Assembly (NCBI GenBank): GCA_015520605.1
Contig: WAPT01000024.1
Span: 25,732-89,731 of the forward strand
Reading direction: 5' to 3'
Length of the DNA stretch: 64,000 bases
Source of the DNA: Nanobdellati archaeon
GTDB lineage: Archaea > EX4484-52 > WAPT01
Part shown: one piece after another, positions 7,036 through 36,459 of the stretch
Numbering within the stretch: position 1 is the first letter of the stretch
Layout: each line of letters opens with the position of its first letter
Position numbers and translations under genes: made by a program
The notes under the pieces: model-generated
The model's input: only the letters and a program-made list of their open reading frames with translations
What the model was told of the DNA's origin: nothing
The model's database searches: none

Positions 7036-7587
7036 ATGGCGAGAGCAGGCTATGTCATGAAGTTCAGGAGAAGGAGGGAAGGTAAAACAGACTATAGAAA
7101 AAGGCTTGCTCTTGTGAAGAGTGGTAAGCCCATACTTACCGTCAGGAGAACGAACACACAGATAATTACCCACATAAGGGAGTTTAATCCTGCTGGAGAC
7201 ATAACAAGAGTTATGATAACCTCAAAGAAGCTTGCTGAATATGGGTGGGAACACTCATCATTCAAGAACACACCCGCAGCCTACCTTACTGGATATCTTA
7301 TAGGCAAAATGGCGCTGCAGCAGGGAATAAAGGAGGCCATACTCGACATTGGCAGGCATGCTGCCACAAAAGGAGCGAGGGTCTTTGCAGTGCTCAAAGG
7401 GGCTGTTGACGCTGGCCTTGAAATCCCCCATTCAGATGATAAGGTACCCGATGAGAGCAGGATTAGAGGAGAGCATATAAGCGATGATGTTGTGGAAATG
7501 TTCAAAAAGGTTAAGGAAAATATTGATAAGATGTTTTCCGAAGCAGGAAGTGCACAAAAAAAGAAGAAATCTAGTAAGAAGGAGTGA
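7036..7587 (+). CDS. rpl18: 50S ribosomal protein L18
   Basis: [34 protein letters not shown]. Confidence 0.96.
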
Positions 7588-7593
7588 TGCTCA

Positions 7594-8295
7594 ATGCCAG
7601 TGAAAATGTCTCTTGAGGATTGGGTGCCAAGGACCGAGCTTGGGAGGATGGTGAAGGAGGGAAAGATTAAGTCGATAGAGGAAATTTTCCAGAAAGGATA
7701 CGTTATAAGAGAGGCCGAAATCGTTGATTATCTCGTACCTGACCTCAAGGAGGAACTCATAAATATAGGTGGTGTTAGCGGTAAAGGTGGTGGTAAGAGA
7801 AGAGTGCCTGTAAGGTCGACGGTTAGGATGCACAAATCTGGTAGGAGAAGAACCCTTCATGCTGCTGCAGTAGTTGGCAACGAAAACGGCCTTATAGGGT
7901 TCGGTGTAGCAAGGGGAAAGAGTGCGAGAGAGGTTATAGAAAAAGCAATAAGGAATGCAAAGCTCAACATCTTCCCAGTAAGGAGGGGTTGTGGATCGTG
8001 GGAATGTGGTTGCAGAACGCCACACTCCATTCCCTTTAAAGCTGAGGGCAAGATGGGAAGCGTTAGGGTTATCCTTATGCCCGCTCCTAAAGGTGTGGGT
8101 CTTGTCATAGGGGATGAGTTGAAGAAAGTTATGAGACTCGCTGGGATCAAAGATGTATGGTCAAAATCTTTTGGAGATACGAGAACTAGACTCAACTCTG
8201 TAGGAGCGGCTATTAAAGCCTTCAAAAACCTTAACAAGATGAAGATCACAGAGGAAGATATCGAAAAGACAGGGATGGTTCAGGGTGCTGTGTGA
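7594..8295 (+). CDS. rps5: 30S ribosomal protein S5
   Basis: WVPRTELG, RRGCGSWEC, PAPKGVGL. Confidence 0.97.
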   Translation: MPVKMSLEDWVPRTELGRMVKEGKIKSIEEIFQKGYVIREAEIVDYLVPDLKEELINIGGVSGKGGGKRRVPVRSTVRMHKSGRRRTLHAAAVVGNENGLIGFGVARGKSAREVIEKAIRNAKLNIFPVRRGCGSWECGCRTPHSIPFKAEGKMGSVRVILMPAPKGVGLVIGDELKKVMRLAGIKDVWSKSFGDTRTRLNSVGAAIKAFKNLNKMKITEEDIEKTGMVQGAV

Positions 8296-8726
8296 TGTAC
8301 GCTGTGGTGAGGGTTAGAGGTACTGTCGGAGTAAGGGAAGATATAGAGAGAACATTAAAATTTCTCAACCTTAATAAGCCACACCACTGCACAGTTGTGC
8401 CCAAGACATCTTCATACGAGGGTATGATATTCAAGGTAAAGGACTACGTTACTTGGGGGGAGATTAATGAAGAAACGCTCAGACTACTAGTTGGGAAAAG
8501 AGGTGAGCTCGAGCGCGGAGGCAGAGTACCTCCTGAAAAGGTTGATGAGCTCGTTGAGAGGATAAAGGAATTTGGGCTCAAAAAAGCCGGTCTGAAGCCG
8601 GTATTCCGTCTTTCTCCTCCCAGAAGGGGGTACGAAAGGAATGGAATAAAGAAACCGTTTAAACTGGGTGGAGCTCTTGGTTACAGGGGGGAAAAGATAA
8701 ACGATCTGATAAAACGGATGGTATAA
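8292..8726 (+). CDS. rpl30: 50S ribosomal protein L30
   Basis: AVVRVRG, FRLSPPR, GALGYRG. Confidence 0.96.
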   Translation: MMYAVVRVRGTVGVREDIERTLKFLNLNKPHHCTVVPKTSSYEGMIFKVKDYVTWGEINEETLRLLVGKRGELERGGRVPPEKVDELVERIKEFGLKKAGLKPVFRLSPPRRGYERNGIKKPFKLGGALGYRGEKINDLIKRMV

Positions 8727-11724: not shown

Positions 11725-12720
11725 ATGCTCTCTACTTCTATCTGCATGCTGCTTGTGAGAGAAAAAGTAGAAACATCGGAAAAGTATGGATATTATCCTC
11801 ATGAAAGGCCCGTAGAACAGCTTTTGAACTATGGCGCTGTCATAATCGACAAGCCACGCGGACCCACAAGCCACCAGGTTGTTGCGTGGGTTAAAGAAAT
11901 TCTTGGCATAGCAAAAGCGGGTCAGACAGGCACTCTTGATCCAAACGCTACAGGAGTTCTTGTCATTCTTCTCAACCACAGTGTAAAGATCACACAGATA
12001 CTTGCAAGAAGTGATAAGGAATACGTTGCTCTGATGAAACTACACGCTGATGTCGAGCCCGAGAGGGTGATGGATGCTGTGAAGCGATTTGAGGGTACAA
12101 TAACGCAGATACCTCCAGTCAGAAGTGCTGTCGCCAGAAAACCAAGGAAAAGGAGAATATACTATATAAACGTTCTTGAAATGGAGGGAAGGTACGTCCT
12201 CTTGCATGTGAAGTGTGAAGCAGGCACTTACATAAGAAAGTTATGCGTTGATATAGGCAAGACCTTGGGTGTGAATGCAAACCTCCAGGAGCTGAGGAGA
12301 ATTGCGGTGGGACACATAAGCGAGGATAAATCCCACTATCTTCAGGATTTGGTTGATGCTTACGTGCTTTGGAAGGAAAAAGGTGATGACTCGCTCTTAC
12401 GAGAGGTTGTGCTGCCTGTGGAATATCTCCTGAAGGATGTTAAGAAGGTTCTAATTAAGGATAGTGCCATTTCACCCATATGTTATGGGGCTCAGCTCCA
12501 TGTGGGTGGGATCTCAATGGTGGACTCTACCATAAGGAAAGGAGACACGGTTGCGATAATGAGTCTGAAGGGCGAGCTTGTTGCGATTGGTAAAGCTGAA
12601 ATGAGCGCCGAGGAGATGGTCAATAGAAAGAAAGGCGTGGCTTGCACCATAAAAAGAGTCATAATGGAGAAGGACACCTATCCAAAACTGTGGAAGACTC
12701 AGAAAAGCGAAATAAAATAA
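11725..12720 (+). CDS. cbf5: H/ACA RNA-guided pseudouridine synthase Cbf5 (TruB family plus PUA domain)
   Basis: DKPRGPTSH, GTLDP, CEAGTYIRKL, C-terminal PUA domain. Confidence 0.95.
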   Translation: MLSTSICMLLVREKVETSEKYGYYPHERPVEQLLNYGAVIIDKPRGPTSHQVVAWVKEILGIAKAGQTGTLDPNATGVLVILLNHSVKITQILARSDKEYVALMKLHADVEPERVMDAVKRFEGTITQIPPVRSAVARKPRKRRIYYINVLEMEGRYVLLHVKCEAGTYIRKLCVDIGKTLGVNANLQELRRIAVGHISEDKSHYLQDLVDAYVLWKEKGDDSLLREVVLPVEYLLKDVKKVLIKDSAISPICYGAQLHVGGISMVDSTIRKGDTVAIMSLKGELVAIGKAEMSAEEMVNRKKGVACTIKRVIMEKDTYPKLWKTQKSEIK

Positions 12721-29085: not shown

Positions 29086-29871
29086 TTGGAGGTCCGGAAG
29101 GTATTGTGTGTTGTGGCCGTGTTTCTGCTGGTGTGTGGTGTTGTGCTCCCACCTGCTGTTGCCGGCGGTCTGTGGGAGCATGTAAAGGAAAAATGGAGCG
29201 AAGTCAAGGAGAAAGTTTCCGAGAAGTATCGTAGAACCAAGGAAAGGGTCTCGCACGGGTGGAACAGGATCAAGGAGGGAACACGGGAGAGATATGAAGA
29301 GACAAAAGAAAAGATCAAGCAGAAAGTTTCGGAGGGAAAGGAGAGACTCGAGCATAGACTCGAGCATGAGTGGAACGAAATAAAGTCCAGAGCAAAGTTC
29401 AAATCACAGAGGGTTGCAACAAGAGCCTGGGAAACATGGAAAAACATGCCGGAGGAGGACAGGAAAAAAGTGAAAATGGCTCTGATAGGTGGAGCCGTTC
29501 TTGTGGGAGTGACATATATGGCGGTGCATCACCCCGGTGCTGTGGCTACAGCTGCGAAATATGCAACAGCGATAATGATCAAAGACGGCAAGCTTGCCGT
29601 TTATGATCCAGAAACAAAGGAAATCATTGAGTCGGCAGCAATGCAGGAAATCTCAAATAAGACGCACGGGCTTGTCAAATCGAACAATTTTGAGGTTGAG
29701 AGTGTTGAAAAGATGCCCGATGGCAAGTACAGAATCAAGGTAAGCGCTGATGTCAATCTCTTCTGGTTGATTCCATGGAAACTCGAGAAGGACATCATCA
29801 TCGATCCCGCAACCGGAAAAGCCCAGGTGGATATGGCGTGGTGGGAGACCCCGCCTTTCTATACCGCTTGA
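29086..29871 (+). CDS. Secreted or membrane protein with amphipathic helical repeats
   Basis: Signal peptide, approximately 11-mer K/E/W repeats, internal hydrophobic helix, C-terminal IDPATG...WW domain. Confidence 0.75.
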   Translation: MEVRKVLCVVAVFLLVCGVVLPPAVAGGLWEHVKEKWSEVKEKVSEKYRRTKERVSHGWNRIKEGTRERYEETKEKIKQKVSEGKERLEHRLEHEWNEIKSRAKFKSQRVATRAWETWKNMPEEDRKKVKMALIGGAVLVGVTYMAVHHPGAVATAAKYATAIMIKDGKLAVYDPETKEIIESAAMQEISNKTHGLVKSNNFEVESVEKMPDGKYRIKVSADVNLFWLIPWKLEKDIIIDPATGKAQVDMAWWETPPFYTA

Positions 29872-29901
29872 TTTTCTAAAATTTTTTAGGAGGTGTGGGA
29901 A

Positions 29902-30903
29902 ATGGAGGATGTAGAGGATGTAGGGGAGATTAAGGATGAGGATGTTAAGTACCTGGAAAAAAAGTACCTGGAAAAAATGATAAAGAACAACAGTATGTTC
30001 TTCACAAAGAAAGCTTCCATCTATCCCATCGTGGGCGGGATTCAGGGAGCGCTGTTCCTAATCGTCGGAGCTGTGCCGACCTTCGTTGCTTTTCTGACGT
30101 TCCTTATCCTACGATCCGGTGCGGGGATATTTCTAAGTTTCGCCGGAGAAAGGGTGATATGGAGCGTAATGCTGCGGATAATCCTAACTTTCATGTTCGG
30201 TCTGTGGATGCTCGCGTTCCTACATTCCGCTGTACTTAGAGAGTTTATGCGTTCGTCTATCGGAGCTCTTATCGGCGGGCTTATCAGCGTTTTCATGACA
30301 CCCCAAGCTTTTCCAGAAGTGAAAACTGCAGGACTTCTTCTTATCTTCTCAAGCTTTGTGACCATGGCCTGCATCGTGATATGTAATGAAGAGGCCAAGA
30401 GGATAGCAAAGAGGAAAGTGAGGATAAAACAGGTGGATGAGGAGACTCTGAAGCTCATCAGGATCATGGAGAACATAAAGTCGTCCGCGGATTTCTATGC
30501 GAGGATCGTGAACGCACTCTACTACATCTGCACAGGACTCGGGGTGCTTTTCGTGGGCAGCATGACTGTATTTTCCCATATTCCAGTTTATTCATACGTC
30601 CATGTAACATCACACCATCCCAATTTCTGGAGCATACTGTTATTTTCACTGGCATTCACCATGCCGCTGGCATTGGTGTTCTCATTCCGAAAATACCTTT
30701 ACTGGACAGGCGTCGCATTCTTCAGTATCCTGGCCGTCGTTTTGGTAGCTAAGGCCGTATCCAGCAGACTGTACATAAACGTCTTGGGACTGATAGCTCT
30801 GGTAGCTGCTGTAGCAATGCCTGTCCTGGCACTGATGTTATCACCTATCCTGAAGCATCAGAGGCTAAGGGAGAAGGTGATGGAGATAGGAGAACTGCTT
30901 TAG
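29902..30903 (+). CDS. Polytopic membrane protein with two similar hydrophobic halves
   Basis: About 9 hydrophobic segments; GGAGGTG Shine-Dalgarno. Confidence 0.75.
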   Translation: MEDVEDVGEIKDEDVKYLEKKYLEKMIKNNSMFFTKKASIYPIVGGIQGALFLIVGAVPTFVAFLTFLILRSGAGIFLSFAGERVIWSVMLRIILTFMFGLWMLAFLHSAVLREFMRSSIGALIGGLISVFMTPQAFPEVKTAGLLLIFSSFVTMACIVICNEEAKRIAKRKVRIKQVDEETLKLIRIMENIKSSADFYARIVNALYYICTGLGVLFVGSMTVFSHIPVYSYVHVTSHHPNFWSILLFSLAFTMPLALVFSFRKYLYWTGVAFFSILAVVLVAKAVSSRLYINVLGLIALVAAVAMPVLALMLSPILKHQRLREKVMEIGELL

Positions 30904-31017: not shown

Positions 31018-32781
31018 ATGCTGGTGGGTGAAGTTTTCGGCAAGACCGGTACCAAAACCTTCCAGTTTCGAGCTTACAAGGAGGTCAACAGAATGGATTT
31101 TGTTACTGTGAAGAGTGTTGATGACCACTGGCTTCTCTGCCGGATTGAGGATGTGGAGATGTATCCTGACGGTAAGATAATCGGCAAAGCAAGGATAATC
31201 GGTTACAGAGAAGATGGGATACTGAAGATCCCAAAGGTCCCCATTAAGCCCAACAGCCTTGTTTACAAAGCAGACAAGGGAATCATAACTGAAGTTCTCA
31301 ATTTGAAAATGGACGGCCTTTACATAGGCGTGCTTGAGGCTAATGAGGATGTGAAGGTATACCTTGATCCGCAGGAGCTCATATCAAAGCATGTTGCCGT
31401 GCTTGCCGCCACCGGATCGGGTAAGTCTTACACGGTCGGTGTGCTCATAGAGGAGATAGCGGAGAGGAGGATTCCGATCGTGGTGATCGATCCCCATGGC
31501 GAGTACACATCCATGAGGTTTCCGAATGATCAGAAGGATGTTAAGGCTTTCAAGAAATTTGGAGTGAATCCGAAGGGTTATGATGTGCAACACTACAGCC
31601 CCGATCCCCGCGTTAACCCCGGTGCTATGCAGCTCAGCTTTGGTTACGATGAGATAGATCCGAGAGAGATAGGCATGCTGTTTCCCTCAAAGCCCACAGC
31701 TTCTCAGCTCGCCTTGCTTTATGCGGCTTTTAAGAGAATAAAATCCACAAAAAAGAACTTCACACTCGATGATATTATAGCGGATGTGGAACAGAGTCAG
31801 AGCCAGAGCAAGTGGAACGTAATAAACATGCTCGAGATGCTGAAGGATATGAGAATTTTCAGCGGGAATCCCACCCCCGTCACAAAACTGGTGGTGCCGG
31901 GAAAGATAACCGTTATTAACCTGAGAGGGGTAACGCAAGAAGTTCAGGCCTACGTCGTGTACAAGATGGTTGAAAGGTTGTTCGAAGCAAGAAAAATAGG
32001 GATGATAAATCCATGTTTCCTTGTGATTGAGGAAGCGCACAACTTCGTGCCGCAGAGCGAGGCAAAGATAAGCTCAAAGATAATAAAAAACGTTGCTTCC
32101 GAAGGAAGGAAGTTCGGTTTGGGGCTTTGTGTAATAAGCCAGAGACCGGCAAGGATAGACAAGAACGTGCTGAGCCAGTGCAACACACAGATAATCCTAA
32201 GGATGATGAATCCAAACGATTTGAAAGCTGTGAGCTATGCTGAAGGGCTTAGCGCTGAGCTGGAGAAGGAGATAAAGAACCTCAACACAGGCACCGCTCT
32301 TATGATAGGGCAGGAATTTCCCATCATAGTTAAGATAAGGGTCAGGAGGAGCAAGCACGGCGGAACAACTCAAGACGTTACGGAGCAGAGAGAAAATACG
32401 ATCCCAATATTCCTACCTCTCAAACCAGTTCAGCACGTGCCGTCTGGAAGCAAGGTTTACTATCCCTGCTGGGTTTTCAATTCTGAGGGGAAGCGCTATG
32501 TTATGGACGCGGTACAGGGTAAGTTCCTCTTCTTTGATGGAAACGTCGTCAGAGAGCAAAACGGAAGTGGGAGTATATTAGAAATGAATATAGAGCACGG
32601 CACAGAAGAGATTGTCGGTAGAGTTATAAGGGCTGAAATAGGTCACAAACGGGCATTGAGCATCGGGAAGAAATTCTTTGGCAGAATTGATAGTGTACAA
32701 CTTGTTTACTATCCTTACATTGTAACGGAGGATGAGCTCATCGATCTTGTAACCGGAGCGATGAAAAAGTTGGGAAGATAA
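31018..32781 (+). CDS. HerA/FtsK-family ATPase (HAS-barrel plus DUF87)
   Basis: KHVAVLAATGSGKS, IDPHGEY, IEEAHNF, EGRKFG, SQRP. Confidence 0.92.
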   Translation: MLVGEVFGKTGTKTFQFRAYKEVNRMDFVTVKSVDDHWLLCRIEDVEMYPDGKIIGKARIIGYREDGILKIPKVPIKPNSLVYKADKGIITEVLNLKMDGLYIGVLEANEDVKVYLDPQELISKHVAVLAATGSGKSYTVGVLIEEIAERRIPIVVIDPHGEYTSMRFPNDQKDVKAFKKFGVNPKGYDVQHYSPDPRVNPGAMQLSFGYDEIDPREIGMLFPSKPTASQLALLYAAFKRIKSTKKNFTLDDIIADVEQSQSQSKWNVINMLEMLKDMRIFSGNPTPVTKLVVPGKITVINLRGVTQEVQAYVVYKMVERLFEARKIGMINPCFLVIEEAHNFVPQSEAKISSKIIKNVASEGRKFGLGLCVISQRPARIDKNVLSQCNTQIILRMMNPNDLKAVSYAEGLSAELEKEIKNLNTGTALMIGQEFPIIVKIRVRRSKHGGTTQDVTEQRENTIPIFLPLKPVQHVPSGSKVYYPCWVFNSEGKRYVMDAVQGKFLFFDGNVVREQNGSGSILEMNIEHGTEEIVGRVIRAEIGHKRALSIGKKFFGRIDSVQLVYYPYIVTEDELIDLVTGAMKKLGR

Positions 32782-32934
32782 TGCTCACAGGCAGACCAAA
32801 ACACACACATCTAATGGAAATGTTTCGGATCAAAATTTTTAAACCTTCATGTTTTATTACCATTTAGAGATATCAAAGCGCATTTCTTTGCTGGGACAAT
32901 AAATGTAGTGTCATTTATGCACTCTGTCTCGCCT

Positions 32935-32997
32935 GACCCGCGGCAGAAAGGCAGAGATATACTTCATTAAACGTCCGTTAAACGTCCGCGGGGATGA
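32935..32997 (+). repeat. K-turn-closed stem-loop element, copy 1 (with an internal 11-bp duplication)
   Basis: GACCCGCGG-CAGAAAGGCAGAGATATACTTCA(TTAAACGTCCG)2-CGGGGATGA. Confidence 0.8.
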
Positions 32998-33041
32998 TGG
33001 TTGTTGGTGTGGAAGAGAATTTTTAGAGGAGGTGGTGTGGT

Positions 33042-33632
33042 TTGAAGTCCAAGACCAAGATAGTTAGGGTATTTCAGCTTCTAGTTCTCGTCTTTTTTGT
33101 AGTTCAGGGAATGTACATAGCGCACTCGATAATCCAACATCACCACTATCTTCAGTCACTCCCAGATACCACACAGGAAATGTATTTAAATCAGGAAATT
33201 CTGAAGTGGGCTCGTCAGCAGAACATATCGGTCATTTTCGATGAGAACTACAAACCATTTATGAAAGTGAAGAACAGCAAAGAACTGATAACGAATTTTG
33301 AAGAAATTAAAGAAATAAAGACAGCGCTGATAATCTCAGTAATACCTAGAGAGCGGATTAATGATGCTTTCAAACCAGATCTCTTGATCAAATACTATCT
33401 AATATCTCCCGCCGGTATACGTTACTATGAGGACTATTACATAGCGCCGACAGGATACACGATAGTCAAGTACAACCAAAACGGTGTCGTTATTCTGAAA
33501 AAGGACGTCACACTAGGGTGGCTCAGGACAATCACTCATGGAAGAAATGTTCTTGTGGGGATAGTGATGCTATTCATCGATGTGACCCTTCTGAGAGTAG
33601 CATTTCCGAAGGGAGAGAACACAGATGTCTAG
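33042..33632 (+). CDS. Hypothetical membrane protein (N- and C-terminal TM helices)
   Basis: TTG start after GGAGGTGG Shine-Dalgarno; two hydrophobic segments. Confidence 0.7.
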   Translation: MKSKTKIVRVFQLLVLVFFVVQGMYIAHSIIQHHHYLQSLPDTTQEMYLNQEILKWARQQNISVIFDENYKPFMKVKNSKELITNFEEIKEIKTALIISVIPRERINDAFKPDLLIKYYLISPAGIRYYEDYYIAPTGYTIVKYNQNGVVILKKDVTLGWLRTITHGRNVLVGIVMLFIDVTLLRVAFPKGENTDV

Positions 33633-33688
33633 AGAGAACACCGAAGTGAGAGTTATTTTCCTTATTTTTTCTTTTATTTTTAGGAAAC

Positions 33689-34582
33689 TTATCCAACTTT
33701 CAAATCCACCGCAACCCGATAATGATACGGTGCAACGGCCCCGCATTTCCTGAAGAAAACGACTCTTGCATCTTTTCCCGCATTTCTGCAACGTTCTTCA
33801 ACCCTTCTTATCACATCCCTGCTCTCAATTTCCTCCTCGCTTGCAAATGTGTAAAGATGTGTCATACCTCCTTTTTTCACCTTTTCAAGCGCAAGCTCAA
33901 GGTAGTCTGGAGCGTCCTTCGGAGCGGGCATAACGATGCGGTCAAATTTTCCTTCAAGCCTCGGTACCACTTCAGCAACATCCCCTTCAATAACCCTCAC
34001 CCTGTCCTCAACTTTGTTCAACACGACATTCTTTCTAAAGTATTCAACAGCATGTGGATTAAGCTCAACTCCGATTACTTCTCTTGGTTTGGCATTCTTG
34101 GATATCACTATGGCAAACGGCCCAACTCCGGCAAACATAACGAGAACCCTCTCACCATCCTTAACCATTTCCGCGATCCTTTTCCTCTCAAACCCCAGCC
34201 TTGAGGAAAAGTAGACTTTAGCCACATCGAGCAGAAACCTGCATCCGTGCTCCGTGTGCACAGTCTCGGTTATTTTTTTTGGCCGGAATTCCTTTTTTAT
34301 GGTGGGAAAGTCTCTCTCTTCCGGCTTTGCCAAGATAACCTCAAATTCAGGTACCCTAAACTTGCCTGCAACATCCCCTGTTTTGTTGAGCACCACTTTA
34401 ACATTCCTGTTGAGTTGCATTATTGCTTTTGCTATCAACTCGGCATGCTTTCTCGCGACTTCATCCAATTCTACTATTGCAATATCCCCGATTATCTCGA
34501 AGGCCCGTGGGATGTGTTCAAGTTCATCCCTCCTTACATCCCCTTCCAGCAGTTTACGGATGTTCAGCTTATCTCCGCTCAT
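33689..34582 (-). CDS. Trm5/Tyw2-family SAM-dependent tRNA methyltransferase
   Basis: IIGDIAI, KVYFSSRL, MFAGVGPF, ELNP, DRIVMP. Confidence 0.9.
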   Translation of the reverse strand: MSGDKLNIRKLLEGDVRRDELEHIPRAFEIIGDIAIVELDEVARKHAELIAKAIMQLNRNVKVVLNKTGDVAGKFRVPEFEVILAKPEERDFPTIKKEFRPKKITETVHTEHGCRFLLDVAKVYFSSRLGFERKRIAEMVKDGERVLVMFAGVGPFAIVISKNAKPREVIGVELNPHAVEYFRKNVVLNKVEDRVRVIEGDVAEVVPRLEGKFDRIVMPAPKDAPDYLELALEKVKKGGMTHLYTFASEEEIESRDVIRRVEERCRNAGKDARVVFFRKCGAVAPYHYRVAVDLKVG

Positions 34583-34642
34583 ATTCCACCAGCTACTTCC
34601 TGTTTTCCCAACTTTTTAAATATCCTCCTTCAAAGCTTCTTT

Positions 34643-35395
34643 ATGCTCTGGCTTATTGGGTTGGGGGTTGGAGATGAAAGGGATATGAGTATAAAGGGGC
34701 TTGAAGCATGCAAAAGAGCGGATGTGATTTTTCTGGAGAGGTACACCTCTCCGGTAAAGATAAACGTCGGGAACCTAAGAAAGCTTGTGGGAAAGGACGT
34801 TATTGAGCTCAGCAGGGAGGATGTGGAGGAAAAAAACCTCGTGGTTAGGGAGGCGGAAAAGAGGAATGTGGCTTTTCTCGTTCCCGGAGACCCGCTCTTC
34901 GCAACAACCCACAAGGAAATCGTGAGAGAATGCATGCTAAGAAAAATAAGAGTAGAGGTAATCCATGCCTCTTCCATTCTAACAGCTGTCGGGGAGAGTG
35001 GTCTTTCTCTCTACAAGTTCGGAAGGGTGGTAAGCCTCCCTTTCCCGCAGGAAAACTACTTTCCTCTGAGTCCTTATGACCACATCCTGACAAATTTAAA
35101 AGCGGGTCTGCACACACTTATCCTCCTCGATATTGGGATGGATGTACACACAGCCATTGATGTGCTGCTGAGAATGGAAGAGAAAAAGAAAGGAAGAATA
35201 TTTACGCAGGATACGAAGCTCGTGGTTCTGTCAAGACTCGGCAGCCCTAACAAATCCATACTTTATAGTTCGATTTCGAAACTAAAAAGTATTGATTTCG
35301 GAGAATCACCTCACTCTCTTGTCATACCGGCTGAGCTAGAACATCATGAGAAAGAATTCCTTGAGCTCTTTGAGGTGGAAAATGAGCAGCGATAA
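34643..35395 (+). CDS. dph5: Diphthine synthase
   Basis: LIGLG, LERYTS, GDPLFATTH, YKFG, LHTLILLD. Confidence 0.94.
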   Translation: MLWLIGLGVGDERDMSIKGLEACKRADVIFLERYTSPVKINVGNLRKLVGKDVIELSREDVEEKNLVVREAEKRNVAFLVPGDPLFATTHKEIVRECMLRKIRVEVIHASSILTAVGESGLSLYKFGRVVSLPFPQENYFPLSPYDHILTNLKAGLHTLILLDIGMDVHTAIDVLLRMEEKKKGRIFTQDTKLVVLSRLGSPNKSILYSSISKLKSIDFGESPHSLVIPAELEHHEKEFLELFEVENEQR

Positions 35396-35633
35396 CCTTA
35401 AAGACGAGCTGATAAGAGAAACGGAAAAGTGGCTGGAAAGGCTGGAAAGCATAGAAATAGAACTCCTTAACAGCTCTCATAAGGACTTTGTTGAAAATAT
35501 AAAAGCATACATTGAGGATGCACGTTATTTTCTGGAAAAGCGGGACTATATAAGGGCATTCGAAGCTGTTGTGTGGGCTTGGGCTTGGCTTGAGATCGGC
35601 GAGAGGGTTGGGTTGCTGAGAAGAAAGGTTTAA
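35382..35633 (+). CDS. DUF357 protein
   Basis: AYIEDARYF...AFEAVVWAWAWLE; usual neighbour of dph5. Confidence 0.85.
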   Translation: MSSDNLKDELIRETEKWLERLESIEIELLNSSHKDFVENIKAYIEDARYFLEKRDYIRAFEAVVWAWAWLEIGERVGLLRRKV

Positions 35634-35797
35634 ACAATAATTCATGAAATCGTAAAAACACGAGTAGAAAACTTTTTAAATTTTCTTGTTTAATCACAAA
35701 TTCGTACTAAAACCAGAAATTCTCTGACTCATCGGGATCGGATACTTCCATACAGATAGTGTGGCTTCTGACTTTTTCTTGTCCCCGCTATCCCGGC

Positions 35798-35849
35798 GAC
35801 CCGCGGCAGAAAGGCAGAGATATACTTCATTAAACGTCCGCGGGGATGA
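35798..35849 (+). repeat. K-turn-closed stem-loop element, copy 2
   Basis: 52 bp, identical to copy 1 apart from the 11-bp duplication. Confidence 0.8.
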
Positions 35850-35903
35850 GGTCGTGCGGTTTTTGATGGGTGGTGTAAAGGAAAAACTGGGGAGGTGAGA
35901 AAA

Positions 35904-36338
35904 TTGGAGAAGAAAAAGGAAGCCCCACTAGGAATAAAGATACTGGCAGCACTATACTTTATTTCCCTTGCATTCTATCTTTTCGGTTTAGCGGTTCTGA
36001 TACCCAGGCTCGGCTTCCTCTTCAGCTACAACCCAATGGTGGCTCTGCTGATAGTGATAACCACCATCATAATGATTGCACTGGCGGGTATGTGGTACGG
36101 GCTCTTGAAGCTAAATCCAACAGCATGGAGAGTTGCGATGGTTTTGTATGGCGTTGGATTGATCATCAATCTCCTCTCTCTGAATGTAATTGCTGTGATA
36201 GTGGGGATCATAATACTATGGTACCTTTATTCCAAGAAGGAACTCTATCTGGGTCCTTCTGAGGTGGCTGGTGGAACCCCGGCAGCTCTTCAGACCCAAG
36301 AAGAACAGGGTTCACAGACTCCAGAAGAACAGGGGTAA
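35904..36338 (+). CDS. Hypothetical 4-TM membrane protein
   Basis: TTG start after GGAGGTGA (ORF track uses GTG 35895); PLGIKILA...GLLKL...AWR...YLY. Confidence 0.75.
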   Translation: MEKKKEAPLGIKILAALYFISLAFYLFGLAVLIPRLGFLFSYNPMVALLIVITTIIMIALAGMWYGLLKLNPTAWRVAMVLYGVGLIINLLSLNVIAVIVGIIILWYLYSKKELYLGPSEVAGGTPAALQTQEEQGSQTPEEQG

Positions 36339-36459
36339 ACCACAAAGAACAACCCTTGACCCAACTTCAATTTTTTAATTTTTTTATTTTCAAAAATGGG
36401 AAAAATTTCCTATATTACTATTCCGGTGGAGTGTTGTCCCTCAAGAACAACCCACATTT

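Follow-up and report, generated by a model that had tools for sequence, protein, structure and literature searches.

A 52-nucleotide leader element with a candidate kink-turn signature precedes orphan membrane-protein genes in a DPANN archaeon

The stretch of DNA analyzed here (the window) comprises 64,000 nucleotides (nt) from a Nanobdellati archaeon (GenBank assembly GCA_015520605.1, contig WAPT01000024.1, positions 25,732 to 89,731 of the forward strand). It harbors two copies of a 52-nt element, which precede open reading frames (ORFs) for two orphan membrane proteins, designated ORF1 and ORF2. The element is a genus-restricted, undescribed candidate and, as judged by its conservation, a discrete and sharply bounded unit under purifying selection. 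Its best explanation, which we put forward tentatively, is that of a cis-acting leader RNA with a kink-turn of the L7Ae type. According to this model, the element would be a cis-acting structured segment within the ORF2 mRNA's 5' untranslated region (UTR), from where recombination would have placed copies of it in the leaders of further membrane-protein genes. Pairing of the two invariant arms in the RNA would give a helix of seven G+C base pairs (bp), and the GA before and the GAU-GA after this helix would form the tandem sheared G:A pairs and the 3-nt bulge of a kink-turn. With G:C at -1b:-1n this kink-turn would be protein-dependent for folding; it would be bound by the archaeal kink-turn protein L7Ae, and the tandem GGCAGA motifs, invariant within the loop, may be recognised by a second factor. 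Binding of L7Ae, with or without this second factor, would set translation or stability of the mRNAs. We infer transcription, folding, L7Ae binding and regulatory output of the element alike from the sequence.

The two copies and the genes behind them are arranged as follows.
Positions 35798 to 35849, plus strand: element copy 2 (52 nt), consisting of GA (35798-99), the 5' arm CCCGCGG (35800-06), a 31-nt loop (35807-37), the 3' arm CCGCGGG (35838-44) and GAUGA (35845-49).
Positions 35805 to 35818, plus strand: tandem GGCAGA-NN-GGCAGA on the 5' side of the loop, from the alignment of the four distinct element sequences.
Positions 35904 to 36338, plus strand: ORF2, a membrane protein of 144 amino acids (aa) with a TTG start, the Shine-Dalgarno sequence GGAGGTGA at 35891-35898 and the conserved motif WYGLLKLNPTAW.
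Positions 32935 to 32997, plus strand: element copy 1 (63 nt), with the arms at 32937-43 and 32986-92 and GAUGA at 32993-97.
Positions 33042 to 33632, plus strand: ORF1, an orphan membrane protein of 196 aa with a TTG start and the Shine-Dalgarno sequence GGAGGTG at 33028-33034.

Copy 1 equals copy 2 over its 52 nt without a mismatch and additionally contains an 11-nt tandem duplication (TTAAACGTCCG, present twice at 32967-32988). The copies share two exact direct repeats, the 43-mer GACCCGCGGCAGAAAGGCAGAGATATACTTCATTAAACGTCCG (32935-32977 and 35798-35840) and the 20-mer TTAAACGTCCGCGGGGATGA (32978-32997 and 35830-35849). The initial annotation, which had placed the repeat at 32935, with an extra 11 bp, and at 35798, was exact on both counts; the duplication is real but not fixed. 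When the contigs of four DNA runs (X1 to X4) were compared with positions 32700-36400, it was missing from a contig of X1, the possible source run (depth 41.7), and present in a contig of X2, a second run of the same study (depth 4.8). The duplication is thus a strain-level polymorphism or an assembly difference, and the length of the loop is evidently not critical. The annotated spacing of about 45-55 nt to TTG-started ORFs with strong Shine-Dalgarno sequences agrees with the measured distances of 44 nt for copy 1 and 54 nt for copy 2. The same applies to the description of the two genes as unrelated membrane proteins, as both possess hydrophobic N-terminal segments and an ORF1 query matches only itself.

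The source genome (G000) belongs to a DPANN archaeon from hydrothermal-vent metagenomes and comprises 863 kb on 27 contigs with a completeness of 90.7%. Its genus consists of three genomes, G000, G001 and G002, and all genus-level comparisons rest on n = 3. A BLAST search of 61 genomes (G000 and 60 relatives) revealed five copies of the element with four distinct sequences, all within this genus: two in G000, one in G001 and two in G002, where both are located at contig ends. Beyond the two copies known to the initial annotation, three were thus added from outside the own genome, all of them confined to the genus. No more than these two copies occur in G000 at up to three mismatches or by a covariance model. 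This model was built from the four distinct sequences and run on G000 and on 42 genomes of the order, over which it recovered the same five copies. Its next match in G000 scored 19 bits and lay in a coding region, and the weaker matches overall (up to 24 bits) were rejected, being located inside coding sequences such as a GMP-synthase-like frame and the S28e gene. Pattern scans were run on JGI metagenome contigs, viral contigs and GTDB species genomes; they demanded both arms unchanged, so that compensatory changes in the arms were undetectable. They returned five matches in the JGI metagenomes, none in the viral contigs and, in the GTDB species genomes, the known G001 and G002 copies plus three bacterial matches. 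The metagenomic matches were rejected as chance, with unrelated loops on contigs of 59-73% G+C, and the bacterial ones were dismissed as chance as well. Among 4227 Rfam families, those of the C/D type included, none matched the element, either at E up to 10 or in a scan of the window at gathering thresholds. No relevant literature on kink-turn leaders of DPANN archaea was found among the matches listed.

Between species the element shows 86-92% identity, compared with 49-72% in the upstream leader, 35-40% in the sequence downstream to the start codon (35-72% for the flanks taken together) and 49-63% for the ORF2 protein. This argues for purifying selection on the element. The invariant block runs exactly from GA to GAUGA, and each sequence has its own bases directly outside it. 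Both GGCAGA hexamers are invariant in all four distinct sequences, while the NN spacers between them vary (AA, GG, AG); a further exact instance of GGCAGA-NN-GGCAGA does not occur in G000. Within the loop, variation is greatest in the 3' half, which is A/T-rich and contains a 2-nt indel between species. Together with the 11-nt indel of copy 1, this indel excludes a leader peptide encoded across the element. In all five copies the element has the orientation of the downstream gene and ends 44-54 nt before its start codon.

The core signature of a kink-turn is present, at the level of sequence, in all copies. The 7-bp CCCGCGG/CCGCGGG stem is flanked by GA and GAU-GA in all five copies, and in the four distinct sequences the helix that would serve as the C helix is paired in 28 of 28 cells. 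The nucleotides of the bulge and the tandem G:A pairs are likewise invariant in four of four distinct sequences. Under simple base frequencies such flanks are expected by chance with a probability of about 1/256, and the element was found via its duplication and not via this signature. Copy 1 in addition shows a D-box-like CUGA, a C-box-like AUGAUGG and a continuation in register by U:U, G-C, G-C and U:G. The genome encodes L7Ae, whose own leader shows four GAUGA motifs around the Shine-Dalgarno sequence (see below).

Several results weigh against a kink-turn. All seven stem pairs are invariant in the four distinct sequences, so that the covariation sought with the covariance model and in the relatives is absent; this is neutral with regard to pairing. 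Of the 16 flank cells of the outer (NC) helix, no more than 8 pair in kink-turn register, and copy 1 is the only sequence fully in register. When the stem was held fixed, 791, 191, 507 and 503 of 1000 flank shuffles paired at least as well as the four sequences. Compared with 3000 random genomic flank pairs the corresponding fractions were 0.33, 0.01, 0.08 and 0.46, of which only the value of copy 2 (0.01) is notable. The 7-bp stem occurs in the minimum-energy or centroid fold of G001, G002 and copy 2 (centroid) and is absent for copy 1, and without constraints the minimum-energy fold of either window copy is built from other pairs. Fold z-scores of -0.13, 0.64, 1.07 and -1.95 show that three of the four short sequences fold no better than shuffles. 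Genome-wide, GA-stem-NNUGA hairpins are not enriched (63, compared with 18-84 for control flank pairs). The Shine-Dalgarno sequences start 30-45 nt after the element, and duplexes between the upstream leader and the Shine-Dalgarno sequence do not exceed those of shuffles (p = 0.40, 0.21, 0.75, 0.45 and 0.08). The CCGCGG palindrome in the arms could be read as DNA, and the evidence base consists of three genomes. The picture of a stem closed by GA...GAU-GA with kink-turn geometry, as drawn in the initial annotation, is therefore retained in part: the closing nucleotides are present in five of five copies and bound the conserved block, but the minimum-energy folds of the window copies skip the stem, its pairs do not covary and flank pairing does not exceed chance. 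The accompanying claim that the flanks differ between copies yet still pair is not confirmed in this form, as this pairing is no better than in shuffles and covers half of the in-register cells.

The poorly supported outer helix and the lack of Shine-Dalgarno occlusion would also fit a leader RNA of another kind, in which the hairpin shows the tandem GGCAGA to a different RNA-binding protein or to an RNA, or serves as a signal for processing or stabilisation, and GA and GAUGA are kept for that partner. The invariance of the hexamers next to variable 2-nt spacers speaks for this possibility, which we nevertheless consider unlikely. No candidate partner was found; G000 contains neither a second GGCAGA-NN-GGCAGA nor a complement to the loop of at least 13 nt, and the element shows no resemblance to the signal recognition particle (SRP) RNA of the genome. 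Mimicry of SRP RNA by the GGCAGA loop was rejected, the SRP RNA of G000 being without such a motif. In addition, a partner of this kind explains the stop of conservation at GA and GAUGA less economically than a kink-turn does.

The position of the element relative to promoters bears on whether it acts as RNA at all. The following features were assigned upstream of the two copies.
Positions 35668 to 35681, plus strand: canonical archaeal promoter-like box AAAACTTTTTAAAT, about 117 nt before copy 2, its position being kept in G001 as AAAGCTTTTTAAGT; putative function.
Positions 35700 to 35797, plus strand: upstream part of the presumed ORF2 leader, moderately conserved, with identities of 59% (G001) and, for the 53 nt that could be compared, 72% (G002).
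Positions 32832 to 32844, plus strand: putative promoter-like box AAAATTTTTAAAC, about 90 nt before copy 1.

The conservation of a canonical promoter box about 120 nt upstream of the element in G000 and G001 suggests that the element lies inside a long 5' UTR, with an estimated length of roughly 175-200 nt. Between the element and the start codon no conserved promoter-like box was detected. Promoters of G000 are generally marked by TTTAAA boxes with A-rich upstream flanks. In most of the 22 tRNA genes such a box precedes the mature 5' end by about 45-60 nt. By this distance the tRNA leaders would measure about 20-30 nt and thus be unusually long. The tRNA-Thr gene has CATTAAAC upstream in place of a TTTAAA-type box.

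The element could instead function as DNA, namely as an operator or promoter module. A transcription factor would then bind two CCGCGG palindromes that lie 38 bp apart on either side of a weak TATA-like ATTAAA, and the module would have been copied along with the 5' ends of genes. Each arm indeed contains the palindrome CCGCGG, so that the repeat can be taken as inverted or, in terms of the palindrome, as direct, and the stem never varies. The loop of G000 and G002 holds CATTAAAC, the same sequence that is found upstream of tRNA-Thr at promoter distance, and whole 5' modules have moved between genes. Such a module is nonetheless quite improbable. The A/T part is the least conserved one, and in G001 the ATTAAA of the loop is changed to TTGCAC (within TTTGCAC) while both arms are kept; a promoter in the loop thus fails to explain the conservation. 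Promoters of this genome have strong TTTAAA boxes with A-rich flanks, one of which is the box conserved about 120 nt upstream. Palindromy ends at 6 bp of each arm, and an 8-bp spacing of direct repeats combined with a 38-bp spacing of the arms would be unusual for one dimeric factor. CCGCGG is moreover an ordinary sequence in the genome, with 96 observed and about 102 expected occurrences. These numbers also led to the rejection of an avoidance of CCGCGG as a restriction site.

The conserved upstream promoter might alternatively drive an independent small RNA of about 150-160 nt, whose end would lie near a T-run behind the element; expression of ORF2 would then depend on read-through. T5 runs follow both copies in the window (35860-64 and 33020-24), the stretch from promoter to element is 59% conserved between G000 and G001, and G001 keeps the element despite an interrupted ORF2. 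However, neither G001 nor G002 contig 3 possesses a T-run of at least 4 nt after the element, and copy 1 shares the 52-nt core with copy 2 but not the upstream part. As there is also no Rfam match, no C/D or H/ACA box and no visible separate promoter for ORF2, a small RNA is very unlikely.

The history of the copies was deduced from their genomic surroundings. G000 and G001 have the gene order diphthine synthase, DUF357, element, ORF2 and undecaprenyl-diphosphate synthase (opposite strand) in common, and the ORF2 homologue of G002 is also preceded by the element. As the element stands before ORF2 in all three genomes and in synteny, the ORF2-leader copy is probably ancestral to the genus. A distant ORF2 homologue with 35% identity in a genome of another family (G014) has a short A/T leader without the element. 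Copy 1 and copy 2 in the window share only the 52-nt core and not the upstream part. The second copy of G002 precedes the orthologue of the window ORF 29893-30903, which encodes a membrane protein of 336 aa, and its identity to the ORF2 leader of G002 is 100% across the element itself, 20 nt behind it and no fewer than 62 nt in front of it. Inspection of G002 contig 3 (L033 2013-3084, minus strand) showed that the 5' end of this orthologue is replaced by the ORF2 leader, including the first approximately ten ORF2-like codons (EKKEAPLGIK). In G000 the gene for the 336-aa protein starts 21 nt after ORF 29086-29871 and has no leader of its own. These comparisons indicate two independent events, one in each of two species, by which the 5' module of ORF2 was copied to membrane-protein genes nearby.

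With regard to function, the proposal of an undescribed cis-regulatory leader received partial support, in that a conserved island without Rfam match is kept before the ORF2 orthologue in three of three genomes; its assignment to the kink-turns stays at the level of sequence. The initial annotation had offered a small mobile or guide-like RNA family as the other option. The short terminal inverted repeats would be in keeping with a miniature transposable element or with an attC-like hairpin, as would the copy before an orphan gene in a spacer of variable length (911, about 850 and 73 nt, see below) and the finding that copies are identical within a genome while species differ at 4-7 of 50 aligned positions. 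Against such a mobile or recombination element, there are at most two copies per genome (2, 2 and 1 in the three genomes), no target-site or other flanking duplication, no copy in viral contigs and, according to the covariance model, no other family member in the own genome. In three of three species the copy at ORF2 has a fixed place among syntenic housekeeping genes, and no recombinase gene is present among the neighbours listed. This explanation thus ranks as highly improbable. A guide function was rejected because the loop has no complement longer than 12 nt in the own genome, where 12-mers occur at chance level. The lack of a convincing complement, of C/D or ACA boxes and of higher copy numbers leaves this second option of the initial annotation unsupported.

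The genes located behind the element are orphan membrane proteins, and neither ORF1 nor ORF2 has a Pfam match. The control of accessory surface genes envisaged in the initial annotation is hypothetical. The ORF2 family is genus-restricted, with four proteins in a database of 5.8 billion. TTG at 35904 was taken as the true start of ORF2, whereas GTG at 35895 was rejected, since it lies inside the Shine-Dalgarno sequence. The C-terminal tail of ORF2, QTQEEQGSQTPEEQG, is encoded by a near-perfect 24-nt tandem repeat (window positions 36291-36334), and its length and sequence vary among the homologues. In G001 the ORF2 homologue is interrupted (L034 4043-4404, minus strand): a frame of 91 aa ends with TAA and the remainder matches in another frame. 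The element upstream of it is intact.

ORF1 has no homologue in G001 or G002 and matches only itself in the 5.8-billion-protein database. Together with copy 1 it sits in the spacer between the genes for HerA and Trm5 (Trm5/Taw22; window positions 32782-33695), which measures 911 nt in G000, about 850 nt in G001 (L034 ~7420-8300) and 73 nt in G002 (L074 ~2058-2132). This spacer is a variable slot: in G000 it is occupied by ORF1, and in G001 by an unrelated orphan, which is soluble, about 185 aa long and preceded by a Shine-Dalgarno sequence of its own. Run X4 carries the G002-type arrangement, with a spacer of 73 nt and a G002-type element. A diverged ORF1 relative was found in run X3 (68 differences over 561 nt), on a contig that jumps from 32779 to 33026, and ORF1 may thus occur there without the element leader. 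Within the neighbouring Trm5-like methyltransferase gene, positions 34064-34311 reached a contig depth of 346-809 in X1 and X2. This short conserved part is represented by short contigs with loose ends on both sides, and the jump in depth is probably due to homologues from other organisms and not to a change in copy number.

Taken at its furthest, the model would make the element a portable 5' mRNA module, in which a protein-dependent kink-turn and a loop with tandem GGCAGA recruit L7Ae and a lineage-specific factor and thereby gate translation in a host-dependent DPANN archaeon, the targets being membrane or surface proteins that evolve fast. Passed from gene to gene by recombination, in one case with the first ten codons, it would plug new membrane proteins into one circuit. 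This extended version is speculative, and we regard it as rather unlikely in its entirety.

Among the known RNAs with kink-turns, archaeal H/ACA hairpins have a kink-turn whose non-canonical side points towards the hairpin base and whose C helix is apical, and the putative kink-turn of the element would be oriented alike. It differs from them in that a pseudouridylation pocket and a lower stem are missing. ACA was absent from the 30 nt after four of the five copies (two in the window and two in G002), and a single GACAGG was found in G001.

Box C/D sRNAs usually have only a few nt between the D' and C' boxes, whereas 45 nt lie between the corresponding boxes of the element. Similarity to a D'/C' kink-turn or K-loop is confined to copy 1, in which CUGA ... 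AUGAUGG surrounds the helix with a U:U pair. The C box consensus is RUGAUGA and that of the D box CUGA, as given by Daume et al. 2017 (PMC5539422). In place of CUGA the other three element sequences have GCGA, ACGA or GUGA. Terminal C and D boxes at guide distance are absent on either side of the element, and neither an Rfam C/D match (E up to 10) nor a target of at least 13 nt for the loop was obtained. As a putative structured island that is conserved in a 5' UTR and would be recognised by a protein, the element resembles leaders of ribosomal protein genes and other structured archaeal leaders. In contrast to these it has no Rfam match, and the downstream genes are not ribosomal.

The closest comparison is with the l7ae-type leaders. 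Kink-turns in archaeal mRNAs that respond to L7Ae have been reported for the l7ae 5' UTR, nop5, saci_1468 and saci_2027 (PMC5539422 and PMC6298567), and L7Ae also binds kink-turns in other mRNAs, including their 5' UTRs (Daume et al. 2017, PMC5539422). Those of the l7ae leaders contain a GAU bulge and tandem G:A pairs; in half of them the C helix bears the loop, and two have G:C at -1b:-1n (PMC6298567). Sequences with a -1b:-1n G:C of this type fold only with protein (Huang, Ashraf and Lilley 2019, PMC6298567). The element likewise carries the terminal loop at its C helix, like half of the l7ae leaders published, and G:C at -1b:-1n, and it is situated upstream of a Shine-Dalgarno-led gene. The leader of the L7Ae gene of G000 (contig 11, ~12195-12263, L075; GGATGAGCTGATGAGATGAGGTGATGAGTATG) contains four GATGA motifs that overlap the Shine-Dalgarno sequence after a CTTTATAAAA box, and it looks like the known autoregulatory kink-turn leader of L7Ae. 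The element differs from l7ae-type leaders in its long C helix of seven G-C-rich pairs, its 31-nt loop with conserved tandem GGCAGA and its weak outer helix. The genes behind it are orphan membrane proteins and not L7Ae or components of ribonucleoproteins (RNPs). Its Shine-Dalgarno sequence is 30-45 nt away without detectable occlusion, so that no ribosome-binding site lies next to or inside the kink-turn stem-loop. Since occlusion was tested with this result and binding by L7Ae is hypothetical, the element is not placed in the l7ae-type operator class but resembles it in the core signature. If it does form a kink-turn, L7Ae-type riboregulation would reach beyond the genes of RNP biogenesis, such as l7ae and nop5, for which it has been shown. 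It would extend to lineage-specific membrane proteins of a reduced, probably host-dependent archaeon, and would exemplify how recombination moves a regulatory leader from one gene to another. With its 52 nt the element is small, sharply bounded and easily testable in this respect.

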